DNA of 64,000 nt. Source: a virus. The notes under the pieces were generated by a model. It made no database searches, was not told the origin of the DNA, and worked only from the letters and a program-made list of their open reading frames with translations. This document shows, piece by piece, positions 13,951 through 25,707 of this stretch. Positions within the stretch are counted from its first letter, which is position 1; every line of letters begins with the position of its first letter. The translations under genes were made by a program, and so were the position numbers. Location: positions 32,001 to 96,000 of IMG/VR virus record IMGVR_UViG_3300027969_000044; one strand, given 5' to 3'.

Positions 13951-14793
13951 ATGACAGATTATTACCACGCCCTTGGTGTTCAAAAGGGAGCTTCAGATGA
14001 TGAGATTAAAAAGGCTTATCGCAAACTGGCGATGAAGCACCATCCTGACCGCGGTGGCGATGCATCTGAATTTCAAAAGATACAAGAAGCATACGCCACA
14101 CTTAGTGATCCACACAAAAGAACAGAGTATGATAACCCCACTCCACAGTTTGGCGGCGGATCGGGGTTCCCTCCCGGATTCGAAGAAATGTTTCGAAACG
14201 GACAATTTGGAGATATGTTTGGAGGAGGTAACCCATTCTTTGGAGCAGGCTTTGGACGACAACCTCGACAATCAAAGAATAGAGACATAAGCCTCGAAAC
14301 ACAAGTTACATTAGAAGATGCCTTTTCCGGCAAGACAATTATGGCGAACATAAATTTGCCTAGCGGAAGAGAGCAAGTACTAGAAATTAAAATACCCCCC
14401 GGAATTAGCACAGGTCAACGCCTAAGACTACAAGGAATGGGCGATGATTCAAATCCGCATTTAAACAAAGGTGACATATACATTACCATTCATGTAGCAA
14501 GACACAGTACATATGAAAGAGAAGGCGATGATTTAATTACAGAAATTACTATTTCGGTCTGGGATGCTATGTTAGGAACCGATACAACTATTAAAACTCT
14601 CGACAACAGACAATTACAAGTAGGAATTCCAGCAGGAACGCAACCGGGTAGTACATTACGATTAGCAGGATACGGAATGTCAAACATACAAGATAGTCGG
14701 TTTAAAGGAAATATTTTATTAAACATTAATGTTAATGTACCTACTAATTTAACTGAAGAACAAAAAAATCTAGTTAAACAACTTAAGGCGTAA
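13951..14793 (+). CDS. DnaJ-family co-chaperone without zinc finger (CbpA-like)
   Basis: J-domain with HPD, G/F-rich linker and C-terminal substrate-binding domains. Confidence 0.92.
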
Positions 14794-14801
14794 ATATCGA
14801 T

Positions 14802-15305
14802 ATGCTAGAAATTAAAAAATTCCCCGACCCAATTTTAAAAGAACGTCTACAAGACTTTGATTTTGAAAATCCAGTAATGGATCCTGTAGAACTTGAACGC
14901 GAAATGTTAGCAACTATGTTTGCCAACAACGGTATCGGTCTTGCAGCAAATCAAGTTGGGATTAATGCCCGCGTGTTTGTAATGGGTTCTAAAGAAAACT
15001 TTTTAATGGCTAAAGCGTACTTTAATCCAAAGGTGCTTGCCAATACAGATACACTACAAGAACTGGAGGAAGGATGTTTGAGTTTTTCCAATATTTTTGT
15101 TAAAATAAAAAGACCAGATGCTATTAAGGTTGAATATCAAAATTCAAAAGGTGAAACTGAAACTTCAGAATTTAGTGGGTGGGACTGTAGAGTGTTTCTA
15201 CACGAATTTGATCATTTGGAAGGTATTACTTTCCAGGATCGAACTAGCCAACTTAAATGGGCATTAGCAATTAAGAAATCAAAACCTAAAAGGAAAGTAA
15301 AATAA
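14802..15305 (+). CDS. def: Peptide deformylase
   Basis: GIGLAANQ, EGCLS and HEFDH motifs. Confidence 0.95.
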   Translation: MLEIKKFPDPILKERLQDFDFENPVMDPVELEREMLATMFANNGIGLAANQVGINARVFVMGSKENFLMAKAYFNPKVLANTDTLQELEEGCLSFSNIFVKIKRPDAIKVEYQNSKGETETSEFSGWDCRVFLHEFDHLEGITFQDRTSQLKWALAIKKSKPKRKVK

Positions 15306-15306
15306 T

Positions 15307-17595
15307 ATGATATTGGAACCAAACAGCGATCTTGAACAGATTTTTGAAAGAGCAGTTAATCTTGCCATTAAGAATCAGCACGAGTATATAACACTTGAGC
15401 ATTTCTTACACAGCATGGTCGTTGATCAAAAGTTTGGAGCATTGCTCAAGGACTTTGGAGCAGAGGTAGCTGACCTAAAAGCTAACCTAGAAAACTTCAT
15501 CGATAAAGAACTAGACGATATCAAGGTAGTTGCTAAAGATCAAAAGCCAAAGAAAACAAACACAGTTGAGCGTATGCTTAATCGTGCGTTTACACAGGTA
15601 TTGTTTAGCGGACGTAATGTAATTGATCCAGTTGATTGCTTTATTAGCCTGTTTGCCGAAAAGAAGAGTTTTGCCAACTACTTTTTACGTAAAGCTAAAG
15701 TAGACAAAGATGCGTTTATTAAATGGATTAATGAAGAAAATTCTAAAGACGAAGAAGAAGGCAGCGAAGGCGGCCGTGGTGGTGGTAGAGACTTAGATCG
15801 TTTGATTGGAAAGTATTGTGTTAACCTAACACAAAAAGTAAAGAACAAACAAATTGATCCTGTTATTGGCCGCGAAAAAGAGATCGAAGAAATTCAACTG
15901 GTACTTGCTCGCCGTACAAAGTCAAACGTTATGATGATCGGTGATCCGGGTGTAGGTAAGACTGCTATTGCTGAAGGTCTAGCACGTAAGATCTTTGAAG
16001 GTAGCGTTCCTAAATTTATTTTAAATCACACAGTTTATAGTCTAGACATCAGTGCTATGATCGCAGGTAGCAAATATCGCGGTGACTTTGAAGAACGTTT
16101 GAAAGGTGTTATTAAAGCACTTGAAAATAAGAAAGACGCTATTTTGTTTATCGACGAAGCACACATGATGAATGGTGCTGGATCAGCAGGTAGTGGTTCT
16201 AATGACATGTCTAATATGCTTAAACCAGCATTGGGCAAAGGTACTATTAAAGTTGTAGCAAGTACAACATGGGAAGAGTTCCGTAAACACTTTGAAAAAG
16301 ATCGTGCGTTGATGCGTCGATTCCAGCGTGTAGTTGTTAACGAACCTAACGAAGCTACCGCCATTAAGATCATCAAAGGTCTTAAAAAGTATTACGAAAA
16401 ACATCACGGTGTTAAGATTACAAATCAGGCCATTATTGATAGTGTTAAGTATTCTATCAAATACATGACTGATAAGAAGTTGCCAGATAAGGCAATTGAC
16501 TTAATTGACTGTGCGTGTGCTCGCTTTAAGGTTAGAGATCAGGAAGCAGGTATTGTTGATCACGACGAAATCTTGTTTGAAGTTAGTAAGATCGCAAACT
16601 TGCCTTTAGATCAAATTGCATCTAAAGAAAACAAGAATCTTGTTAACCTTGAAAAGAATATGCGTGGTAAGGTGTTTGGTCAAGAGAAAGCAATTGAAAT
16701 TCTGCTTGATAAAATCTTTATCGCACAAGCAGGGTTAAAGAGTATTAACAAACCAGTTGGTAACTTCTTGTTTGTTGGTCCAACTGGTGTTGGTAAAACT
16801 GAAACTGCTAAACAATTAGCAAGTAATATGAGTGTAGAACTTGTTCGCTTTGATATGAGCGAATTCCAAGAACAACATTCTGTTGCCAAGTTTATTGGTG
16901 CTCCTCCGGGATATGTGGGCTTTGAAGACAACGCAGGTCAGTTGATCACTAAACTACAAGAACATCCTAACTGTATCTTGTTACTTGACGAGATTGAAAA
17001 AGCTCACCCAAGTGTAGCAAACGTTCTACTACAACTTATGGATAACGGTTATGTTACTGGTTCAAATGGAAAAGTAGCAGACGGTCGTAATTGTATTTTG
17101 ATTATGACCAGTAACCTAGGTGCCGCTGATGCTGAAAAGAACGCGGTAGGATTTGGCAGTTTAGAACGTGATGATGACAGCAAAGATGCTATTAACACAT
17201 TCTTTAAACCCGAGTTTCGGAACCGTTTAGACGGCATTATCAAGTTTGGCAAGTTGGATCAAACTACTATGGTTAAGATTGTTAAGAAGTTTATTGACGA
17301 ACTTAATTCATTGTTAAAAGATCGCCATGTTCATGTTAAGCCCGATGCTGACGCAGTTGAGCTATTGATCAAGAAAGGCTTTAACAGTAAAATGGGCGCT
17401 CGTCCACTAGCACGTACTATTGACGACTTAATCAAGAAGCCGTTAAGTAAGCAGATTCTTTTTGGCAACTTACAAAATGGCGGATTAGTAGAAATACTAG
17501 TTAAAGGCGATGACCTTATGCTAAATTACATCGAAACATTACCAGTTGTTGATGTGAAAGCCGAAGAGATACAAATTGAAGACGCTGGAAACTAA
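15307..17595 (+). CDS. clpA: ClpA-type AAA+ unfoldase
   Basis: Clp N-domain, two Walker A motifs ([16 protein letters not shown]), no long ClpB M-domain, VGF ClpP-docking loop. Confidence 0.9.
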
Positions 17596-18282: not shown

Positions 18283-18693
18283 ATGCCAGCATTAGCCAAA
18301 TCATTCTTATTTCCAAATCTTACTAACCCTGTTAGTACCAGCACCAGCATTAACTATCCTGGTGCTACTACCACTAGTACTTTTACTCGTGTAAGCGATA
18401 AGCAACCAGGTAACGGATACTATGGTGCTAGCAACGGTGTACATACCATAGCATATACTGTACAGCATAACTTTATTGGTACATGTACCGCTCAAGCAAC
18501 ACTGGCTACTGACCCTATTGATATAAACTCAACAAATACCGACTGGTTTGACGTTGTAGATTCACAAATAGAGTACAATTTGCCTGGATATACCACTACA
18601 AACTACGTAAATTTCTCAGGAAACTTTGTGTGGGTACGTGCTAAAGTAGATATCGACCTAGGCGGTATCCAGTTTATCAACTATAACCACTAA
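18283..18693 (+). CDS. Probable virion protein
   Basis: Beta-rich; ends NFSGNFVWVRAK; TAAATA 6 nt before the ATG. Confidence 0.6.
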   Translation: MPALAKSFLFPNLTNPVSTSTSINYPGATTTSTFTRVSDKQPGNGYYGASNGVHTIAYTVQHNFIGTCTAQATLATDPIDINSTNTDWFDVVDSQIEYNLPGYTTTNYVNFSGNFVWVRAKVDIDLGGIQFINYNH

Positions 18694-18764
18694 GCCATTT
18701 TTGTCATAAATACTCTATTATTACAGAGTTAGACTCTGTTCATGACATTAAGGTACGGTTATAT

Positions 18765-19154
18765 ATGAAACTTCTCGAATTCTTCGGAAAACCTATAGAA
18801 ATACACCAGGATAAAAACGATTCCCGTAAACCGGGAGAAGATCCTAAGTTAAATCGCGAAGAAGAAGATCAGCTTGCTAACGATATATTAGAGTATATCC
18901 TTAACAACGACGAGCTACACAAAAAGCAGTTTTTACCCGTAGCAAGAAAACTCCACAAAAACCCAACAACACATCACAAGCCTGATGTATGGCTACCTTT
19001 AGTAAACAAAGGATGTATGGAGTTTTACAAAGAACGAGATATGAGTGGCGATCCAATGGATCTATTCAATAAAGAATTTAGGTCTGACTTATGTAAGAAA
19101 TTTTCAGACCATAACAAACACATCCTCATGGGTGAATACAATCTCGGAAGATAA
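18765..19154 (+). CDS. Candidate capsid-internal protein
   Basis: N-terminus MKLLEFF; TAAATA at 18707-18712 upstream. Confidence 0.55.
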   Translation: MKLLEFFGKPIEIHQDKNDSRKPGEDPKLNREEEDQLANDILEYILNNDELHKKQFLPVARKLHKNPTTHHKPDVWLPLVNKGCMEFYKERDMSGDPMDLFNKEFRSDLCKKFSDHNKHILMGEYNLGR

Positions 19155-19157
19155 CCC

Positions 19158-22100
19158 ATGCTATTAAATGAATTTTTTAAAAGATCATTAACCGAGGGCG
19201 GAAATCTTGCCATTGGTCAAGATCAAGCGCAAAGCATTGATTTAAAAGTACACAACAGAGCTTTTATAGTTCCTATACTTACAAAACTATTATACGGAAT
19301 TAACGATGGGTTTGCCGCAGTTAATCAAAAGCCATTGTGGAATCCCGCCCTATTACAAAAGGGAGAATTCCTAAGCGGCTCTAGTTTACATTTCTTCAAC
19401 ACAAAGATTCCCGACGAGCAATTTGAAAAAGTTAAACCTAAAGTAGGCGACATTGACACACAAGTTGATAAGTTAATGGAGAAAGAACTAGAAGGATGGT
19501 TAAACTCTGTTAAGGGTAAACTTATTGGCGGAGGTAAGTTAATTGGCTTTGAGAGAGGCAACGAGCAATACAGTAGTCTATGGGAATTACAAGACCCTCC
19601 TATTAAAATACAAATTGACTTAGAGTTTGTTGCGTTTGACAAAGAAGAACCAACAGCATGGAGTAAATTTAGTCACTCAAGTGATTGGGAAGATATACAA
19701 GCAGGTGTCAAAGGTGTATTCCACAAATGGTTGATACAGTCATTTACAGATCTAACTACTCGTGATTTCTTATTGCGTAAACTAGTAGGTCGCGGCAAAG
19801 CCCGTGTTGAGCAAGATGTACCTGCCAATGACAACTTATTATCCTTTGCTGTTAGCAGTAAAGAAGGTGGCGGACTACGTCCTAAGTACGAGCCAGTGAC
19901 AGACGAAGCTGGACAGCCGTTAATTGTAGACGGGCTACCTGTTATGCGAGCATTGCCTCCTGCGGGATACGAACAAGACATTGGTAAGATATTTGCTCTA
20001 ATCTTTGGAGACAGAATTGATCCTAAGAAAGCAAAACAACTAAGCACTAAGTTTTGGTCATTTACTGGCTTGCTAGATGTAATGACACAGGTGTTAAGTC
20101 CTGAAGAACAACAACAAGTTGTACAGGCATTTATACATAAACTGTATGACAAGGGCGCACAAGGTCTTTATAAAAATGATCCAGAACGTGATGCCGAAGA
20201 AAAAGATGCCGCTATGGCCAAGATGCTTGAAGTATTAAAAATAGCGCCTCCTCCAGAACTAGCACAGATGAAGCAGTCATATCAAGCAAATTACAGAATG
20301 ACTACAAATGAAAGCCTGCGTGAAGCTGAAGAACCAGCACCAGTTAAGGCACAGCTACGCAAAGGTATGCCACACTTACACGATCTAAAGGCTCCTGATT
20401 TTTTAGACCTATTAGATGAGATTCACGACGGCAACGGTAACTTCAAGTTACAAAACGTTCCATTAAATGTCAAAGTAGACGGCTTTGGTGGACGATTTGG
20501 TAAAGATGCTAACGGTAAACCATTCATGGGTACTAGCCGAACAGAGCCACGTTACGAAGCCAGCTTTGTCAAGTATCATCAACAAAAGGGCACAACAGAT
20601 CCAGAGATCTTAGGTCGTGCTCAAATGTTTGACGACTTGTTTAAAGAAATGATGAACGCTATTAAACTAGTCGATGGCAAACTAGGCCCAGACTTTTTAA
20701 TCAACAAACAAGTAACTTGTGAAGTATTGTTCTTACCATTTGCTACACAAACTGACGAAGGTCGTTTAAAGTTTGTGGGCATTGAATACGATCAACTACC
20801 ACAAGGTGTACAACTGGCACTAGTTCCATTTCATGCTGTAGAAGCAGATAGTGGAGAGCCTGTTGAAGATCCAGAATTTATTGATAGCTTACTTGAAGTA
20901 GGTAATCAAGGTAGTGTTATGTTTATTAACAATAGACTAGCACAGAAAGAAGGACTTGACGTTACAGAAATTATCAATGTATTAGATAACATTGAAGAAC
21001 TAAAACAAATTGTATCTGATACAGCAGGCAAGCGTGACCGCGCTAGTCTACAGTTAAAGAAAGAAGTAGAAGAAAAACTACAACCTATTAAAGATCAATT
21101 AGAGCAAGCAATTATTAAAGATCCTAACATTATTGGAAAAGATATGTTAGGTAAAGACTATGAAGGCATTGTTATTAACAGTCGTCTCGGTCCTATCAAA
21201 ATTACCAGTCAAGAACAGCGTGATGTTATCAGTGCCAAGTTAGATGCTAAGAAAAATGCTCGCACAGAACGTCCCCGTGATAATCAAAACAAGACAGCAG
21301 TAGTTGCCATTGGTAGCTTTGTTGGACACAAGGGTCATCAAGAACTTTGGCAGTATACACAACAAGAAGCCCAAACACTGGGCGGCGATCCGTATTTGTT
21401 CATCGGTAATGCCGAAGGCAAAGACGATCCTATTCCTGTTCCCGACAAACTTAAAACATGGCACATGTTGTATCCGCAGTTTGCCAAAAACATCAGCGCG
21501 GTTACGCACGAAGGTGGAAGCATTATGCAGAAGATTAAACACGAGTTGATTAATCCTTTACCAGGCAAGCCTCCACGTTACGACAATATTGTTATTATGG
21601 TTGGCGAAGATCGTAAAGACTTACCGTTAGGTAAAGCTCTAATGAAAGCTGTTAATAAGTTTCCAGGATACGAGCACGTTAAAGTAGACTTAAAAGTTAC
21701 TCCACGTGGTCAAGGAGTAAGCGGCACTGCTCTTAGAAATATTCTAAAGACAGGCAACCCTAACCAACAATACACATTCTGGAATGACACATTTAACGGT
21801 GGCAAGTTTGGATCACAACAATTAACTCCAGAATGGATTAAACACCTAATGGATGTAACCAAGAAAGGTATGGGCATTACTACCCCTTCAGTTACAGCAC
21901 CAATTAAGAAACAGGAACAACCAACTATGGCTAAACCTCAACAACCAGTACAGCAACAGCAACCAGAGCAAGAGCCGTTAGCTGAAAGTATCCGTAGAGA
22001 AATTATGATTACTCGAGCAGAGATTGCTTGGCAGAAAGAATTGTCGGAAGCAAGGATGAGTGCTGCCGTTAAACTTCAACGAGCCTTTGATAGAGAGCGT

Positions 22101-23633
22101 TCTAAGAGTGACGCTAGTCGTCAACGTGCTGACGCGGCCAAGGCAGCGTTTGAGAAAGAGTGGAAAGCTAAACAAGAAAAAGAAAAGCAAGGTGTGGCAG
22201 AAGATTTAGAAACAGGACATGTGCAAATGCTTTTACATAAAGCATTACAGGCACGCAGAGAAGGCAAACCATTGCAAAGTGTAATGCGTAAAGAAGAAAT
22301 TGCATTATTATCTATGTTGCAAGGAAGTGGAAAACTACAAGGTATGGTTAAAAATAAAAGTGTAGGCGAGGCGCCAATTGAAATGGATCCTGCAGAACCA
22401 ATGAATCCTACAATCTACGGACATCAAGGAGTTAACTCTGCCGAATTAAAAACTCGCATGATGCGAGCTCAAGGACAATTAGCAGACCTGGCAAAGAGAG
22501 CACAAAACGCTAGCCCAATTGAATGGGAAATAATTACACGTAATTTTAAAGAGTTGTCAATGAACATTGAACAGATTCGTCACGCACTAGAAGAACTAGC
22601 TAAAGTTCGCAAGCGTGGTGGGATTCGATCTAGAGGCATTGATAAAAATATTGGTGAGCAAGGTGTGGCGGAAGGCTTATTAGACCCTTCTAAAAGAACT
22701 CAGCTTATTCGTTTCCTAGCAAAGAAAATGGATTGGGAAGTTAACTATCTCGAACTTGCTACTGATCATGAACTTATCAAATGGTACAAAAAAGTACAAG
22801 CCGGTCAAGATCCAATGAAGGAAGATTCGGTAAATGAATTAGTTGGTTATAAAAGCGATAAAAATTATCTAGCGGTAGGTACCCATAAACGATACGATGT
22901 ATATGTGGGTAAAAAGAAGTTTAATAATTTATACTTTATTGCAATTGCAGAAAATCCAAGAACATTAGATGCTAAATTTAAAGCCAAGGGCAATACTCCA
23001 CAAGAGGCAGTAAATAATTTAAAATTAGAAATTGATAAAGAAATTGATGTTGCTACCAAAGTTAGTGGTGCGGCTATATTAGATTTTAATGTAGATTTTG
23101 TAAAAGAAATATTAGAAATGAGTATTGATACGTTTTACGCTAAAATTATTTCAGGTCCTAAATTAGTAATAGCAGGTAGAGAAATGATGGAATACCCTGA
23201 TATTATGAAAAGTGAAGGGTTTAAACCTAGTACCATTAGAACTTACAAAGGCGGAGAAGGTACTACTAAACTACCCGGAGTACCATTAAGCGCCGGAGCG
23301 GCTGCGGCTGCAAGTCTTATTGCCAACGGTAGATATGTATTAGGCGCAGAAACTACAGATAAAGACGGTAACAGAGTATTCAATTTAGAATTTGATAGCG
23401 TTGTTCAAGCATCAAACGATAAAATGAGATTAAGAGCACCTGCGGTTACTGTAGGAACTAATAGATCACAAGGTGTTGCGGAGGCCGGTAAGATTAAGGG
23501 CGCTGACGGTAAAGCCTGTTGGAAAGGTTATAAGTACGCAGGTACTAAGAACGGTAAAGACAAGTGTGTTCCAGTTAGCGAAGATGCGGAACAACTAATG
23601 GCAGGTTTTATTAAGTTGTTGGAATCAAAGTAA
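19158..23633 (+). CDS. Large multidomain protein: Pol-beta-like NTase + ligase-like KxDG domain + HxGH nucleotidyltransferase + modular C-terminal cargo; candidate internal head polyprotein
   Basis: LSGS...GDID...QIDL; NVKVDG...EGIV...IKI; GHKGH...VGEDR...SGTALR; QGVAE three times; CWKGY...CVP terminal module. Confidence 0.7.
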   Translation: MLLNEFFKRSLTEGGNLAIGQDQAQSIDLKVHNRAFIVPILTKLLYGINDGFAAVNQKPLWNPALLQKGEFLSGSSLHFFNTKIPDEQFEKVKPKVGDIDTQVDKLMEKELEGWLNSVKGKLIGGGKLIGFERGNEQYSSLWELQDPPIKIQIDLEFVAFDKEEPTAWSKFSHSSDWEDIQAGVKGVFHKWLIQSFTDLTTRDFLLRKLVGRGKARVEQDVPANDNLLSFAVSSKEGGGLRPKYEPVTDEAGQPLIVDGLPVMRALPPAGYEQDIGKIFALIFGDRIDPKKAKQLSTKFWSFTGLLDVMTQVLSPEEQQQVVQAFIHKLYDKGAQGLYKNDPERDAEEKDAAMAKMLEVLKIAPPPELAQMKQSYQANYRMTTNESLREAEEPAPVKAQLRKGMPHLHDLKAPDFLDLLDEIHDGNGNFKLQNVPLNVKVDGFGGRFGKDANGKPFMGTSRTEPRYEASFVKYHQQKGTTDPEILGRAQMFDDLFKEMMNAIKLVDGKLGPDFLINKQVTCEVLFLPFATQTDEGRLKFVGIEYDQLPQGVQLALVPFHAVEADSGEPVEDPEFIDSLLEVGNQGSVMFINNRLAQKEGLDVTEIINVLDNIEELKQIVSDTAGKRDRASLQLKKEVEEKLQPIKDQLEQAIIKDPNIIGKDMLGKDYEGIVINSRLGPIKITSQEQRDVISAKLDAKKNARTERPRDNQNKTAVVAIGSFVGHKGHQELWQYTQQEAQTLGGDPYLFIGNAEGKDDPIPVPDKLKTWHMLYPQFAKNISAVTHEGGSIMQKIKHELINPLPGKPPRYDNIVIMVGEDRKDLPLGKALMKAVNKFPGYEHVKVDLKVTPRGQGVSGTALRNILKTGNPNQQYTFWNDTFNGGKFGSQQLTPEWIKHLMDVTKKGMGITTPSVTAPIKKQEQPTMAKPQQPVQQQQPEQEPLAESIRREIMITRAEIAWQKELSEARMSAAVKLQRAFDRERSKSDASRQRADAAKAAFEKEWKAKQEKEKQGVAEDLETGHVQMLLHKALQARREGKPLQSVMRKEEIALLSMLQGSGKLQGMVKNKSVGEAPIEMDPAEPMNPTIYGHQGVNSAELKTRMMRAQGQLADLAKRAQNASPIEWEIITRNFKELSMNIEQIRHALEELAKVRKRGGIRSRGIDKNIGEQGVAEGLLDPSKRTQLIRFLAKKMDWEVNYLELATDHELIKWYKKVQAGQDPMKEDSVNELVGYKSDKNYLAVGTHKRYDVYVGKKKFNNLYFIAIAENPRTLDAKFKAKGNTPQEAVNNLKLEIDKEIDVATKVSGAAILDFNVDFVKEILEMSIDTFYAKIISGPKLVIAGREMMEYPDIMKSEGFKPSTIRTYKGGEGTTKLPGVPLSAGAAAAASLIANGRYVLGAETTDKDGNRVFNLEFDSVVQASNDKMRLRAPAVTVGTNRSQGVAEAGKIKGADGKACWKGYKYAGTKNGKDKCVPVSEDAEQLMAGFIKLLESK

Positions 23634-24040
23634 TGCTATTAACACAGCTATTTGAATCAGCAACTAATGACGCAACCCTAATGGATATGTTGCCTACGTT
23701 CTTACCTTTAGCTTTAGAAATTTTAGAATTACGCAACGTGCCTAATATTAAATTAGAAAAGTTTATTGACGACGAAGTACAACCTACATTTGGTAAATTT
23801 GTCAGTGATGAGAACATAATTTACTTAGGAATTGCCAACAGACACCCTGTAGATATTTTACGTACACTGGCACACGAAATGGTACATTATAAACAAAACA
23901 TAGAGCACGATCTAGATAGCGAATCAGGTCGCACAGGAAGTCCTCAAGAAAATCAAGCACATGAAATTGCCGGAGTTATTATGCGAGAGTTTAATAAAGC
24001 AAATCCAGAATTCCTAAAAGCTAGGCCATTAGAGTTTTAA
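23633..24040 (+). CDS. Small HExxH zinc metallopeptidase-like protein
   Basis: LRTLAHEMVHYKQ followed by ENQA; N-terminus MLLTQLFE. Confidence 0.75.
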   Translation: MLLTQLFESATNDATLMDMLPTFLPLALEILELRNVPNIKLEKFIDDEVQPTFGKFVSDENIIYLGIANRHPVDILRTLAHEMVHYKQNIEHDLDSESGRTGSPQENQAHEIAGVIMREFNKANPEFLKARPLEF

Positions 24041-24051
24041 TAAATACCCAT

Positions 24052-24435
24052 ATGAGAGCAAACGAATTTATTTCTGAAAATCGCAAAGCAGGCAAAGTAA
24101 AGAAACGTGCCGCGGCTGTACAGCAAGGCATTAGAAAGTCTCGCGATGTTGGCGGATATGATCGTGTAAATCACATGAATCGTTTGTGGATGGCAACTGC
24201 TATGGCAGACGGCCAAAGTAAAAAAGGTGTAGATATGGATAGTTACAGTTGGATGGAAAAATACAACACACAACATCCATATACACAAGAAGAATACAAT
24301 ATGTTCAGGCAAGCAGAAAATACTGTCCCAACGGATAGTAAAGAAGTTACACCATGGACAAAGAGTGTAGAGCCAGAAGATACTTATAAAGTAAGTCCGT
24401 CCTCTACATGGAATGTTAAGAAGAAAAAGAAATGA
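24052..24435 (+). CDS. Candidate capsid-internal protein
   Basis: N-terminus MRANEFISE; basic; TAAATA 5 nt before the ATG. Confidence 0.65.
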   Translation: MRANEFISENRKAGKVKKRAAAVQQGIRKSRDVGGYDRVNHMNRLWMATAMADGQSKKGVDMDSYSWMEKYNTQHPYTQEEYNMFRQAENTVPTDSKEVTPWTKSVEPEDTYKVSPSSTWNVKKKKK

Positions 24436-24608
24436 AGATTAGAGAATTATTAGAAGCGGCAAGTAGCGGAGCAACTGGCTCCGGTTCTATTGCGACCGTA
24501 ACTAATCCTGGTGGGAAACCAGCTAGTCAAGTAGGATCTCTGTTTGGTGGTACTTACGGAGAATCTAAAAAAACTAAACCTAAAAAATTTATTAAGAGAC
24601 CGCAATGA
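24432..24608 (+). CDS. Small candidate capsid-internal protein (58 aa, below the ORF-track cutoff)
   Basis: MKIRELLEAASSGATGSGSIATV...KKFIKRPQ*; ATGA overlaps with both neighbours. Confidence 0.7.
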   Translation: MKIRELLEAASSGATGSGSIATVTNPGGKPASQVGSLFGGTYGESKKTKPKKFIKRPQ

Positions 24609-25645
24609 CTAAAAAAATAAAAGAAATTAGTACAGGTGACTATTACTCTAAAGCACACAAGGGGAAAATTTCTGCAGCATCTAAAATGATGTTTGCTGAT
24701 CCTGCTAAGCCAGAAGTACAAAAAGCAATGCGTGACTTTAAGAATAGAGACGCAGGAATGAAACGTGTTTCAGCAAGAAATCAAAAAGCCAGACAGACAA
24801 CTGCTGATAAGAACCGTCAGGGTGCCCTTGCAGCCGATAAAGAAAATCTTCCAGCGTTAATGGCACAGTTTCAAAAGCTAAGAGGTCAGTATGATCCTAA
24901 TTTTGAATACAGTGACGATCACAGTTTTTGGTCAAAGCAAAAAGATATCCAGCAACAATTAAGTGCGTTACAAAAACGTATTAACGATGCTGGTGGAAAA
25001 GTATCAGAGGGAACTAATCCCGAGTATGACGACGAAGCAGGTATGTCTGATAATAATCTAGAAACACTGAGAAGAACAATCGACGGCATAGATGGTTTGA
25101 TTAAGCCCGGTGATAATTTACCAGAATGGTGTCAGGAAAAAATTGCTGTTGCCAAATCTATGTTAGTAGCAGTATGGGACTACATGCAGTCCGAACAGGA
25201 AAGAGGCGCAATGGAAGGTGTTGGCGATTTAGGATATGACGCACAATCTTTAATAATGAAACTGCGACGAGATGTTGAAGAAAAAAGATTACAACCAACT
25301 CCGCAAGCAGTATTAGCGGCCGCATCAGAATTAGCAGGAGATATGAAATTTGCTCCTCAACTACTAGTTCAACAAGTCTTGGGCAAGGGTGTAGCAGAAG
25401 GCGGTGTTAAAGAATGGAAAAAGGGAGTCAAGGCTCCGGTTAAACCACGTAACTTTGTAGCCAAAAATGCGTCAACTGGCGGTGCTGGCGCACATAAAGA
25501 TAAAAAGAAAGATGCTAAACAAGGAAAAGCCAAGCATAAAAAAACTCCAGAGTTAGCCGAAACAGCAACATATGATCGTAGATTAAATGTATTATTAGAA
25601 GCGAAAATGCTAACTAGCCAAATTAGAGATTATAGAAAGAAATAA
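24605..25645 (+). CDS. Modular candidate capsid-internal protein
   Basis: Segments separated by IKE, VSE, AME, KGVAE, LAE and LLE; contains an LPEWCQEKI...DYM module. Confidence 0.65.
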   Translation: MTKKIKEISTGDYYSKAHKGKISAASKMMFADPAKPEVQKAMRDFKNRDAGMKRVSARNQKARQTTADKNRQGALAADKENLPALMAQFQKLRGQYDPNFEYSDDHSFWSKQKDIQQQLSALQKRINDAGGKVSEGTNPEYDDEAGMSDNNLETLRRTIDGIDGLIKPGDNLPEWCQEKIAVAKSMLVAVWDYMQSEQERGAMEGVGDLGYDAQSLIMKLRRDVEEKRLQPTPQAVLAAASELAGDMKFAPQLLVQQVLGKGVAEGGVKEWKKGVKAPVKPRNFVAKNASTGGAGAHKDKKKDAKQGKAKHKKTPELAETATYDRRLNVLLEAKMLTSQIRDYRKK

Positions 25646-25657
25646 ATCATAAAAGAC

Positions 25658-25707
25658 TTGACTTCTCCTGTGTACATCTATATACTATAGAACACAGGAG
25701 ATTTTTT
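25658..25707 (+). promoter_or_regulatory. Sigma70 promoter TTGACT-N17-TATACT inside a terminator hairpin that also covers the SD
   Basis: -35 at 25658-25663, -10 at 25681-25686; arms TCTCCTGTGT (25664-25673) / ACACAGGAGA (25692-25701), then T6 and ATG. Confidence 0.8.

Follow-up and report, generated by a model that had tools for sequence, protein, structure and literature searches.

A variable block of leader-bearing genes in a freshwater Rak2/GAP32-like jumbo phage, probably encoding capsid-targeted and protease-processed cargo

The gene block and its shared leader

The DNA analysed here (the window, 64,000 nucleotides) consists of bases 32001-96000 of the 166-kb IMG/VR record IMGVR_UViG_3300027969_000044 and was found to contain a block of six consecutive open reading frames (ORF1 to ORF6; Table 1), five of which begin with a short leader resembling the capsid-targeting sequence (CTS) of phage T4 internal proteins. 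All six were found on the plus strand with the coordinates and N-termini given in an initial annotation of the sequence, which had read them as an operon of proteins packaged in the head and injected with the DNA, and TAAATA was present upstream of the first and fourth genes, as that annotation had also noted. The genes were tightly packed, with gaps of 3 and 11 nucleotides (nt) and, elsewhere, with overlapping stop and start codons (ATGA). Two features had escaped the annotation: the build of ORF2 as a cargo polyprotein whose modules meet at QGVAE junctions, and the strong variation of the locus within a whole lineage of phages.

Table 1. Features of the gene block and its borders (window coordinates; a slash marks the predicted cut position)
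Feature	Position	Strand	Description
Upstream gene	18283..18693	+	136 amino acids, no leader; left border of the variable locus in relatives
TAAATA box 1	18707..18712	+	context CATAAATACTCTAT; 58 nt 5′ of the ORF1 ATG; candidate T4-type late promoter
ORF1	18765..19154	+	129 amino acids, 15.4 kDa; starts MKLLEFF
ORF2	19158..23633	+	1491 amino acids, 166.5 kDa; starts MLLNEFFKRSLTE
ORF2 leader	19158..19196	+	residues 1-13 (MLLNEFFKRSLTE); ends L-T-E before an invariant GGN
ORF2 domain A	19197..20324	+	about residues 14-389; Pol-beta-superfamily nucleotidyltransferase; end S-L-R-E/A
ORF2 domain B	20343..21239	+	about residues 396-694; ATP-dependent RNA-ligase-like; K-V-D-G at 439-442
ORF2 domain C	21270..21872	+	about residues 705-905; HxGH nucleotidylyltransferase, NMNAT-like; GHKGH at 723, SGTALR at 855
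QGVAE junction 1	22188..22202	+	residues 1011-1015 of ORF2
S-V-G-E/ junction	22359..22370	+	residues 1068-1071 of ORF2; then module starting APIEMDPAEP
QGVAE junction 2	22659..22673	+	residues 1168-1172 of ORF2
QGVAE junction 3	23469..23483	+	residues 1438-1442 of ORF2; before a small Cys-containing C-terminal module
ORF3	23633..24040	+	135 amino acids, isoelectric point (pI) 4.8; starts MLLTQLFE
TAAATA box 2	24041..24046	+	11 nt 5′ of the ORF4 ATG
ORF4	24052..24435	+	127 amino acids, pI 9.7; starts MRANEFISE
ORF5	24432..24608	+	58 amino acids, pI 10.3; starts MKIRELLE
ORF6	24605..25645	+	346 amino acids, pI 9.6; starts MTKKIKEI
KGVAE junction in ORF6	25385..25399	+	GVAE at residue 262
Sigma-70-like promoter	25658..25686	+	TTGACT-17-TATACT; 10/12 matches; joint best-scoring site of the region

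The leader was scored with a position matrix of residues 2-9, which was trained only on the equivalent locus of relatives and applied to the 137 ORFs of the 166-kb piece, in the manner of the genome-wide scan of N-termini that the initial annotation had proposed. Scores of 6 bits or more were found for 7 of the 137 ORFs, with about 0.6 expected, and these were five of the six block genes, an ORF of 84 amino acids after the portal gene and an ORF of 280 amino acids beside the baseplate hub gene. The highest score belonged to ORF4 (16.1 bits), ORF1 reached 13.0 bits and ORF6 remained at background (0.5 bits), so that the leader, which had been claimed for all six genes, was upheld for ORF1 to ORF5 and given up for ORF6. 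The consensus in the block was M-[KRL]-x-x-[EQ]-[FL]-[FIL]-x-E, and an MKTYQEFIAE-like leader of about 8-13 residues ending in (L/I/V)-x-Glu was found in five of the six ORFs, the cut position of ORF1 being ambiguous.

Relatives were collected with the DNA polymerase as the query, which gave 80 loci with polymerases 80-99% identical, and about 30 of these extended far enough upstream to display the block locus. There the locus was found between a conserved gene of about 140 amino acids (MPALS..) and a gene of 89 amino acids before the polymerase, with gene number and content varying strongly among the roughly 30 relatives. Most of the genes at this locus were found to begin with MRAKEFIxE, MKIxELLE, MLLNEFFG or MKLYEFF. 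After removal of the first 20 residues the block proteins fell into 34 BLAST clusters, and the leader was present on at least 15 unrelated ones, being the sole common element of otherwise unrelated proteins in a variable locus. The leader codons varied freely at synonymous sites and the upstream DNA was not conserved, which points to selection on the leader peptide and not on the DNA.

The ORF of 84 amino acids after the portal (T4 gene 67 position; L002:12337-12591, genome 130336-130590; compare L086:5966-6193) was found to contain the leader MLLNEFIYF. At the same post-portal place in the cultured Escherichia phage BF17 a small ORF starts with MLKDIFE, the only similar start seen in the comparison with BF17 and Phosso, which suggests that the tag is old within the Rak2-like group.

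Likeness to T4 leaders and the glutamate as a boundary

The recognition motif of the T4 protease gp21 is (L/I/V)-x-E, and the block leaders MRANEFISE/N, MKIRELLE/A, MLLTQLFE/S and ..RSLTE/G were found to follow the T4 pattern. In T4 the ipII and ipIII proteins begin MKTYQEFIAE/A, ipI begins MKTFKEF, gp24 MAKINELLRE/S, alt MELITELFDE and gp22 MLKEQLIAE, and gp23 contains an internal ..FLTE/AE, the marked positions being those which we take to be cut. These T4 sequences were read from NC_000866, and the CTS concept for T4 internal proteins has been described in PMC3012670 and PMC12373910.

The terminal glutamate was found to mark a boundary in several ways. Domain A of ORF2 has 383 homologues, and among the best 120 of these most were found to contain a leader of 7-26 residues with Glu directly before the invariant GGN (for example MITFKQFLLE/GGN, MIKTYQQFLLE/GGN and MRAKEFLKEA..LLE/GGN). 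The leaderless homologues of the cultured phages Vibrio phiKT1024, Stenotrophomonas Ps15, Xanthomonas X1 and Flavobacterium immuto begin with MGGN and so start exactly at the predicted cut. Equivalent modules were also found behind a leader and behind a junction, with MRANEFLTE/KWSQKYKSSINC corresponding to GVAE/EWSQKYKSSINC and MKIAELIAE/DWNKV.. corresponding to GVAE/DWQKV...

The capsid protein of the phage was found to contain a matching predicted site, YLAE/AATSG.. (LAE/AA), at residue 41. The capsid protein of the Rak2-group phage 121Q falls from 42.2 to 37 kDa (PMC5646251), a shift that fits the removal of about 41 residues, and the bubblegram pattern of 121Q is consistent with an inner body (PMC5646251). 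The density of [LIV]xE was highest of the whole genome in the protein at the scaffold position (60 per 1000 residues), followed by the protease (38), with a background of 11, as is expected if both are chopped up as in T4.

Gene 1-56 of Campylobacter phage vB_CcoM-IBB_35 (39251-40417, 44.4 kDa) was found to be a domain A homologue (tblastn 4e-11) with the N-terminus MKLSELMFILE/GGN. Its product is among the 38 proteins detected in purified virions of that phage by electrospray ionisation tandem mass spectrometry, with 17% coverage (PMC3322345, supplementary table), so that at least one leader-bearing member of the family is a virion protein. No domain A homologue is listed in the main text of the CP21 paper. 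In the Campylobacter phages CPt10 and IBB_35 the leader-bearing domain A homologue directly follows a radical-SAM gene.

The enzyme modules of ORF2

The leader of ORF2, whose residues 1-8 had a predicted local distance difference test score (pLDDT) below 50 in the model, was followed by three enzyme-like domains, then by a low-complexity region of charged residues and by another four or five modules of small size. Domain A was found to contain G74-S75, D98, D100, D154 and E156 as invariant residues in 45 sequences (GS motif, DxD and third carboxylate). Its model had a pLDDT of 91.9, and the 50 top structural neighbours listed were nearly all nucleotidyltransferases of the Pol-beta fold, those of the terminal uridylyl and poly(A) type, OAS and Pol mu ranking first, with TUT7 (Z 8.2), Trf4 (7.6), GLD-2 (7.5), OAS2 (7.3) and Pol mu (7.2). 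Stand-alone homologues of domains B and C together were found to start just past the SLRE/A end of domain A.

Domain B retained KxDG (motif I) in its full-length homologues and was modelled with a pLDDT of 88. It had no sequence-profile match in Pfam, NCBIfam or a sequence search of the PDB, and a search of domains B and C against PDB sequences gave only chance-level matches, so that both domains called for a comparison of folds. The structural neighbours of domain B were NgrRnl (Z 10.5 over 194 aligned residues), Trypanosoma brucei REL1 (9.7), an archaeal RNA ligase (8.7), T4 Rnl2 (8.4-8.6) and T4 Rnl1 (7.7), and the Trl1 ligase was also matched by Foldseek.

Domain C was found to contain the (H/T)xGH motif and a second motif of the SxTxxR type, with G328, H329, G331 and H332 invariant in the alignment. 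It matched phrog_3041 'cytidyltransferase' (1.3e-9), and PPAT, FAD synthetase and NMNAT were matched by Foldseek at 1e-5 with probability 1.0; the nearest folds were NadM (Z 12.0) and NadD (11.6). The scores lay below the curated cut-offs for FAD_syn (16.4 bits, cut-off 27) and for the NCBIfam FAD synthetase model (21.5, cut-off 241). The clear fold match upholds membership of the superfamily, without a specific substrate assignment.

The C-terminal modules of ORF2 had no Pfam, PHROG or NCBIfam match. By inspection, a start similar to that of the module behind the S-V-G-E/ junction was seen in the relative L009, where it directly follows a leader as a protein of its own (MRAERVIE/APISMDPAEP).

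The same enzymes were found in other arrangements elsewhere. In Stenotrophomonas phage Ps15 and Xanthomonas phage X1 the nucleotidyltransferase-like, KxDG ligase-like and NMNAT-like enzymes are separate adjoining genes in the same order, Flavobacterium phage immuto has a nucleotidyltransferase-like domain together with HExxH motifs in one protein of 907 amino acids annotated as NMNAT, and related enzyme sets are present in Vibrio phage phiKT1024 and in Flavobacterium phages. Their occurrence as neighbours or fusions in other phages suggests a working set, which is here fused and tagged. Ligase and template-independent transferase are the classic make-up of phage RNA repair (PMC9503650), and the set would fit a service in mending the ends of RNA (tRNA), or in countering host defence in some other way. 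The leaderless set in culturable phages is undescribed and is open to study there. The enzyme assignments of the initial annotation held, with Pol-beta-like, RNA-ligase-like and HxGH/NMNAT-like domains of nucleotidyltransferase type, a protein with HExxH and small basic proteins of pI 9.7 and 10.3.

The QGVAE junction

The sequence GVAE was found 34 times in 55.5k residues of block proteins, as against 2 times in 92k control residues, and it was absent from the other 50k residues of the genome. The V-A-E/ of the junction conforms to the prohead-protease motif, and the flanking sequences of the junctions were unrelated to each other. The codon string CAA GGT GTG GCG GAA was found on the coding strand only. 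Among 87 distinct in-frame junction sites, relatives L005-L084 included, GTG was present at 70 and GCG at 77, although these genes otherwise use GTG for 9% of their Val and GCG for 8% of their Ala. Of the 12-mer GGTGTGGCGGAA, 62 forward and 0 reverse copies were found, with 0.02 expected.

Natural variants were found to break at the junctions. In one lake contig junction 1 leads directly into junction 2, so that 22186-22656 (471 nt) is left out in frame, and 13 nt are common at the joint; 84 nt past 23483 (junction 3) are exchanged for 213 other letters in a lake contig, and an in-frame deletion of 177 nt ends at the ORF6 junction. Other lake contigs diverge exactly at 22659 and 22673, as loose ends. 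These breakpoints mark the junction as a crossover point for gain, loss and exchange of modules. From its sequence the junction is probably also a protease cut site, and its frozen codons could reflect gene conversion, a pause site or a nuclease target. No paper on a QGVAE phage motif was found in the literature.

The other block genes

ORF1 is the conserved first gene of the block, with a family of 17 in relatives of which 16 bear a leader, and it had no Pfam, PHROG or NCBIfam match.

ORF3 was found to contain the leader MLLTQLFE/S and the motif HEMVH. It matched phrog_87 'metallo-protease' (3.9e-7), all Pfam peptidase matches being below the cut-off. Among the best 120 listed of its 367 homologues, 107 were leader-bearing and HE(L/M)VH was retained; some homologues are named ImmA/M78 peptidase, by JGI labels only. 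ORF3 is a candidate small Zn-metallopeptidase-like protein.

ORF4, with the leader MRANEFISE/N, was the most conserved single-module cargo, with a family of 30 in relatives and 87 representative clusters. No match was found in Pfam, PHROG or NCBIfam, and a look-up in the Atlas gave low-score leads only. The module was also found at the C-terminal end of longer proteins, where the complete leader including its Met is retained internally (..KYANRIIRE-MRAKEFVxE/), and from this sequence the fused module would be released by internal initiation or internal cutting. Such fused proteins were P0183, P0366, P0363, P0370 and P0160, in which the leader stands in frame after the conserved ..KYANRIIRE.

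Past its cut, ORF5 was found to be nearly a copy of the N-arm that the capsid protein of this phage would have once mature (capsid gene at genome 133586-134761, L002:15587-16762). ORF5 reads MKIRELLE/AASSGATGSGSIATV and the capsid protein ..YLAE/AATSGATSSGNIATL at residue 41, with 13 of 21 positions identical by hand count. The capsid-arm motif was present behind a leader in 10 block proteins of 54-734 amino acids and in 0 of 452 control ORFs, and it may act as a second signal anchoring cargo to the capsid. Motifs like SATSGATGSGSIAT were seen at the head of cargo proteins of up to 734 amino acids in relatives.

ORF6 was found to be coupled to ORF5 by an ATGA overlap and to contain modules that are also present in leader-bearing proteins, while most of it had no Pfam, PHROG or NCBIfam match. 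A single gene split into ORF5 and ORF6 by a frameshift in an A-run was ruled out, since stops close the ORF6 frame upstream of its ATG.

Source phage and head genes

The IMG/VR record is rated 46% complete, which suggests a genome size of about 360 kb, and the sequencing runs containing the stretch carry freshwater or lake metagenome labels. The head module was found outside the window and is of the T4 type, with the order portal, ORF of 84 amino acids, acidic ORF of 338 amino acids, gp21-type prohead protease, scaffold-position protein of 366 amino acids and gp23 capsid protein. Profile matches were found for the portal (PF07230, 3e-110), the prohead protease (PF03420, 5.7e-26) and the capsid protein (PF07068, 4.9e-97). 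The protease (genome 131816-132448) has 36% identity to T4 gp21 and retains the ..HP.. and GVSSRG motifs. One genome was thus found to hold the gp21-type protease together with the T4-type portal, scaffold and gp23 capsid protein, as CTS systems do.

The capsid protein has about 70% identity to the capsid proteins of GAP32, CBB, Serratia BF, Vibrio 2.275.O and Sinorhizobium Phosso, which identifies the source as a Rak2-like jumbo phage; by its sequence it is an uncultured freshwater Rak2/GAP32-like jumbo phage of the T4 superfamily. A near-identity search of the block DNA against 50,697 phage records gave no match, as did a tblastn search of ORF4 against the phage collection, which points to a clade without a cultured close relative in that collection. 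In the cultured Rak2-like phages BF17 and Phosso the gene order upstream of the polymerase differs and no counterpart block was found there. No paper on a CTS in Rak2-like phages was found in the literature.

Interpretation and rival explanations

The block is best explained as the main variable cargo locus of this phage. That it is, as a whole, a block of capsid-targeted and protease-processed cargo is considered probable. Taken separately, packaging and processing are likely from the sequences, and injection with an anti-defence or RNA-repair role is plausible by analogy, with the chances about even. What the sequences themselves show is the common leader in excess of chance, its presence on unrelated families, the protease gene, the agreement with the predicted capsid site, the equivalence of modules at the Glu, the domain folds and the breakpoints at the junctions; targeting, cleavage, ejection and function are what we infer for the block proteins. 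The initial annotation's proposal of a capsid-targeting leader cut after hydrophobic-x-Glu on a cargo operon is strongly supported by the comparative evidence and by the published virion proteome of the homologue, with ORF6 falling outside it.

By analogy with T4, the leader would bring a protein into the scaffolding core of the prohead, and the gp21-type prohead protease would then cleave after the Glu of (L/I/V)-x-E. The ORF2 polyprotein would probably be cut into pieces inside the head at SLRE/A, at SVGE/A and at the three QGVAE/ borders. Once mature, these pieces would remain beside the DNA in the head and would probably pass into the cell along with it, being present there before any phage gene expression. 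QGVAE additionally serves as a DNA-level cassette for in-frame gain, loss and swap of modules. A further, tentative proposal, which we hold to be possible rather than probable, is a plug-and-play loading in which the leader directs modules strung in a chain into the prohead, a cassette of 15-18 nt (..CAA GGT GTG GCG GAA GG.., QGVAE/G) acts as cut site and as crossover between co-infecting phages, and the preloaded trio of RNA-ligase-like, terminal-transferase-like and NMNAT-like enzymes would, within seconds of the start of infection, begin to undo damage that the host inflicts on tRNA/RNA (or NAD-related damage).

Several observations weigh against the reading as capsid-targeted cargo. ORF6 is without a leader, and ORF1-type leaders (MLLNEFFG..) have no Glu at position 8-9, with a possible cut after E5. 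The structural matches of domain A are only moderate, the best having a Z of 8.2, and the virion detection concerns the IBB_35 homologue, which is 24% identical. The leaderless homologues in cultured phages adjoin replication genes and are probably ordinary cytoplasmic enzymes, so that the enzymes would not need a capsid to work. The block itself is outside the head module, with chaperone/protease genes (DnaJ-like, deformylase-like and ClpA-like) on one side and replication genes on the other. Several TAAATA copies overlap stop codons, and TAAATA was found within 80 nt of 38 of 208 block genes in relatives as against 87 of 447 control genes, an about equal share. Because of these overlaps and the missing enrichment over controls, TAAATA was downgraded as firm evidence of late promoters, and the late-promoter reading of the two boxes is only suggestive.

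The leader-bearing proteins could instead be head-internal assembly parts (core, scaffold or inner body), which are cut and then degraded or left behind and not delivered as effectors. The T4 assembly proteins gp22, gp24, gp67 and gp68 have the same type of N-terminus, the leader ORF of 84 amino acids occupies the gp67 position, ORF5 resembles the capsid N-arm, the bubblegram of 121Q is inner-body-like and small basic proteins could merely neutralise DNA. Conservation would be expected of assembly parts, yet the locus differs among phages with DNA polymerases 80-87% identical, and the cargo includes folded enzymes with intact catalytic motifs, which are also free enzymes in other phages and fit effectors better than scaffolds. 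This explanation is regarded as rather unlikely.

Leader and QGVAE might also be mere recombination or expression cassettes on cytoplasmic proteins, with no targeting or cleavage. Since its DNA is not conserved, the leader cannot have the role of a crossover cassette; its sequence agrees with the T4 CTS and with the cut site in the capsid protein of this phage, it is retained internally in fused forms and a homologue is present in virions. The codon-level conservation of QGVAE (GTG, GCG and the forward-only 12-mer), the natural deletions and swaps that break exactly there and the leaderless homologues that work elsewhere all agree with a cassette, but the two roles of QGVAE are compatible, and a cassette with no further role is judged quite improbable. 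Least credible, and given very little probability, is a leader that serves as the tag of another machine, such as a degron for a phage ClpA/ClpP or the mark of a modifying enzyme, with no capsid address. In its favour, a conserved ClpA-like ATPase gene (15307-17595) closely precedes the locus, a ClpP-like ORF, called from its N-terminal sequence alone, is present at another place of the genome, and in Campylobacter phages a radical-SAM gene comes before the homologue. Against it, the locus of the relatives showed no modifying enzyme, and the tag ends in the prohead-protease motif, equals the module junctions, resembles the capsid maturation site and also heads a head-module gene.

Comparison with known systems

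Work on the CTS of T4 internal proteins was reportedly done by Mullaney and Black (1996) and by Repoila and co-workers (1994), as cited within other papers. The T4 proteins IPI, IPII, IPIII and Alt with gp21 (PMC3012670; PMC12373910) are alike in the short leader ending (L/I)-x-E and in the gp21-type protease. Likewise the leader is all that the proteins there have in common, the locus changes fast, and the cargo combines small basic proteins with one or more large enzymes (Alt in T4). The present block differs in belonging to a Rak2-like freshwater jumbo phage of about 360 kb and not to a T-even phage, in having many more cargo families, in stringing cargo into polyproteins with internal cut-type junctions, and in carrying RNA-ligase, nucleotidyltransferase and NMNAT-like enzymes where T4 has restriction inhibitors and an ADP-ribosyltransferase. 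On sequence grounds the block shows every defining feature of the T4 internal-protein/CTS system that can be read from a sequence. Four points set it apart from T4, namely the group of phages it belongs to, the wide range of cargo families, the joining of cargo into polyproteins and the junction cassette at the level of the DNA.

For phiKZ and SPN3US the cut motif is S/A/G-x-E, and we know of no short common N-terminal tag in these phages. They are also giant phages with a large protein load in the head, from which propeptides are removed after Glu by a gp21-related protease, and this load is ejected into the cell (PMC5694885; PMC7411985; PMC10052503). They stand outside the Rak2 group, and the QGVAE cassette junction and module swapping are not described there. 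The Dar anti-restriction system of P1 (DarA, DarB, Hdf and others; PMC9024508; PMC12810830) also has head-packed proteins which are ejected and protect incoming DNA and whose packaging needs N-terminal parts of the cargo and head assembly, but it belongs to another head lineage, with a set loading order and without a T4-type tag or protease-site junctions.

The repair of tRNA in T4 by Pnkp and Rnl1 against the anticodon nuclease PrrC (PMC9503650) is alike in having a KxDG RNA-ligase fold beside a nucleotidyltransferase of the template-independent type. Here the enzymes are fused and capsid-tagged, and no kinase-phosphatase domain was found. The CTS-coding DNA of T-even ip loci is said by Repoila and co-workers (1994) to be a shuffling element. 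The promoter early stem-loop elements (PeSLs) of T4-type phages (PMC2839356; PMC4122927) are alike in being short conserved DNA elements that flank variable units and mark exchange between related phages. Unlike PeSLs, the element of the present block lies inside reading frames, always in one frame, encodes the protease-type site QGVAE and exchanges protein modules and not whole genes.

To our knowledge, RNA-ligase-like, terminal-transferase-like and NMNAT-like enzymes and a small metallopeptidase have never been reported as virion cargo. The three internal proteins of T4 are specific inhibitors of restriction enzymes (PMC12373910), so that a head-cargo leader seen in a sequence can serve directly to pick out proteins that counter host defence early. 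The label is here extended to giant freshwater phages, where it marks dozens of unknown families; the junction cassette suggests a route for in-frame reshuffling of injected proteins, and with the leader and junction come short signals for targeting and cutting that could be moved to foreign proteins to load them into capsids of large size.

Flanking genes, promoter-like elements and other observations

The gene directly upstream of the block was found to match phrog_13657 (2.4e-12) and the 'virion structural protein' phrog_14467 (4e-6), and its ATG is preceded by CATAAATAC at a distance of 12 nt. The element ..TAAATAC(T/C)CTA.. precedes the first block gene in 9 relatives, and some relatives contain TAAATA ahead of their MRAKEFI gene. 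TAAATA was found to be depleted genome-wide, at about half the frequency expected from base composition: the two strands have 65 and 25 copies, where each should have about 134. Of the copies, 32 are 70 nt or less upstream of genes, many of them structural. In some ten genes TAAATA was found 8-12 nt ahead of the ATG with no Shine-Dalgarno sequence between (for example at window 3481, 5111, 14791, 18271 and 24041); this spacing may reflect late mRNAs whose 5′ leaders are very short or missing altogether, and some copies merely contain the upstream stop codon. Directly 3′ of TAAATA box 1 a short inverted repeat (..CTCTAT..(A/G)GAGT..; window 18707-18745) was found, which is kept in L028, L029, L040, L045, L057, L072 and L075 and from its sequence would fold into a hairpin at the transcript's 5′ terminus.

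The sigma-70-like promoter directly after ORF6 is followed by the next unit, with a regulator-like gene of 89 amino acids and then the DNA polymerase, and it makes the block look like a separate unit. One lake metatranscriptome run was found to contain four short contigs of the block, which were not counted as expression since DNA may be present in such libraries.

A conserved set of protein-handling genes was found 5′ of the block at window 13951-17595, with DnaJ-like, peptide-deformylase-like and ClpA-like products, the latter a two-AAA ATPase with a Clp_N domain and the only one of the set that was compared with Pfam. The ClpP-like ORF mentioned above lies at genome 6135-6728 (L003). Four giant ORFs of 4855, 3183, 3042 and 2667 amino acids were found among the tail and fibre genes, at genome 92763-107330, 143328-152879, 11888-21016 and 154681-162684, respectively.

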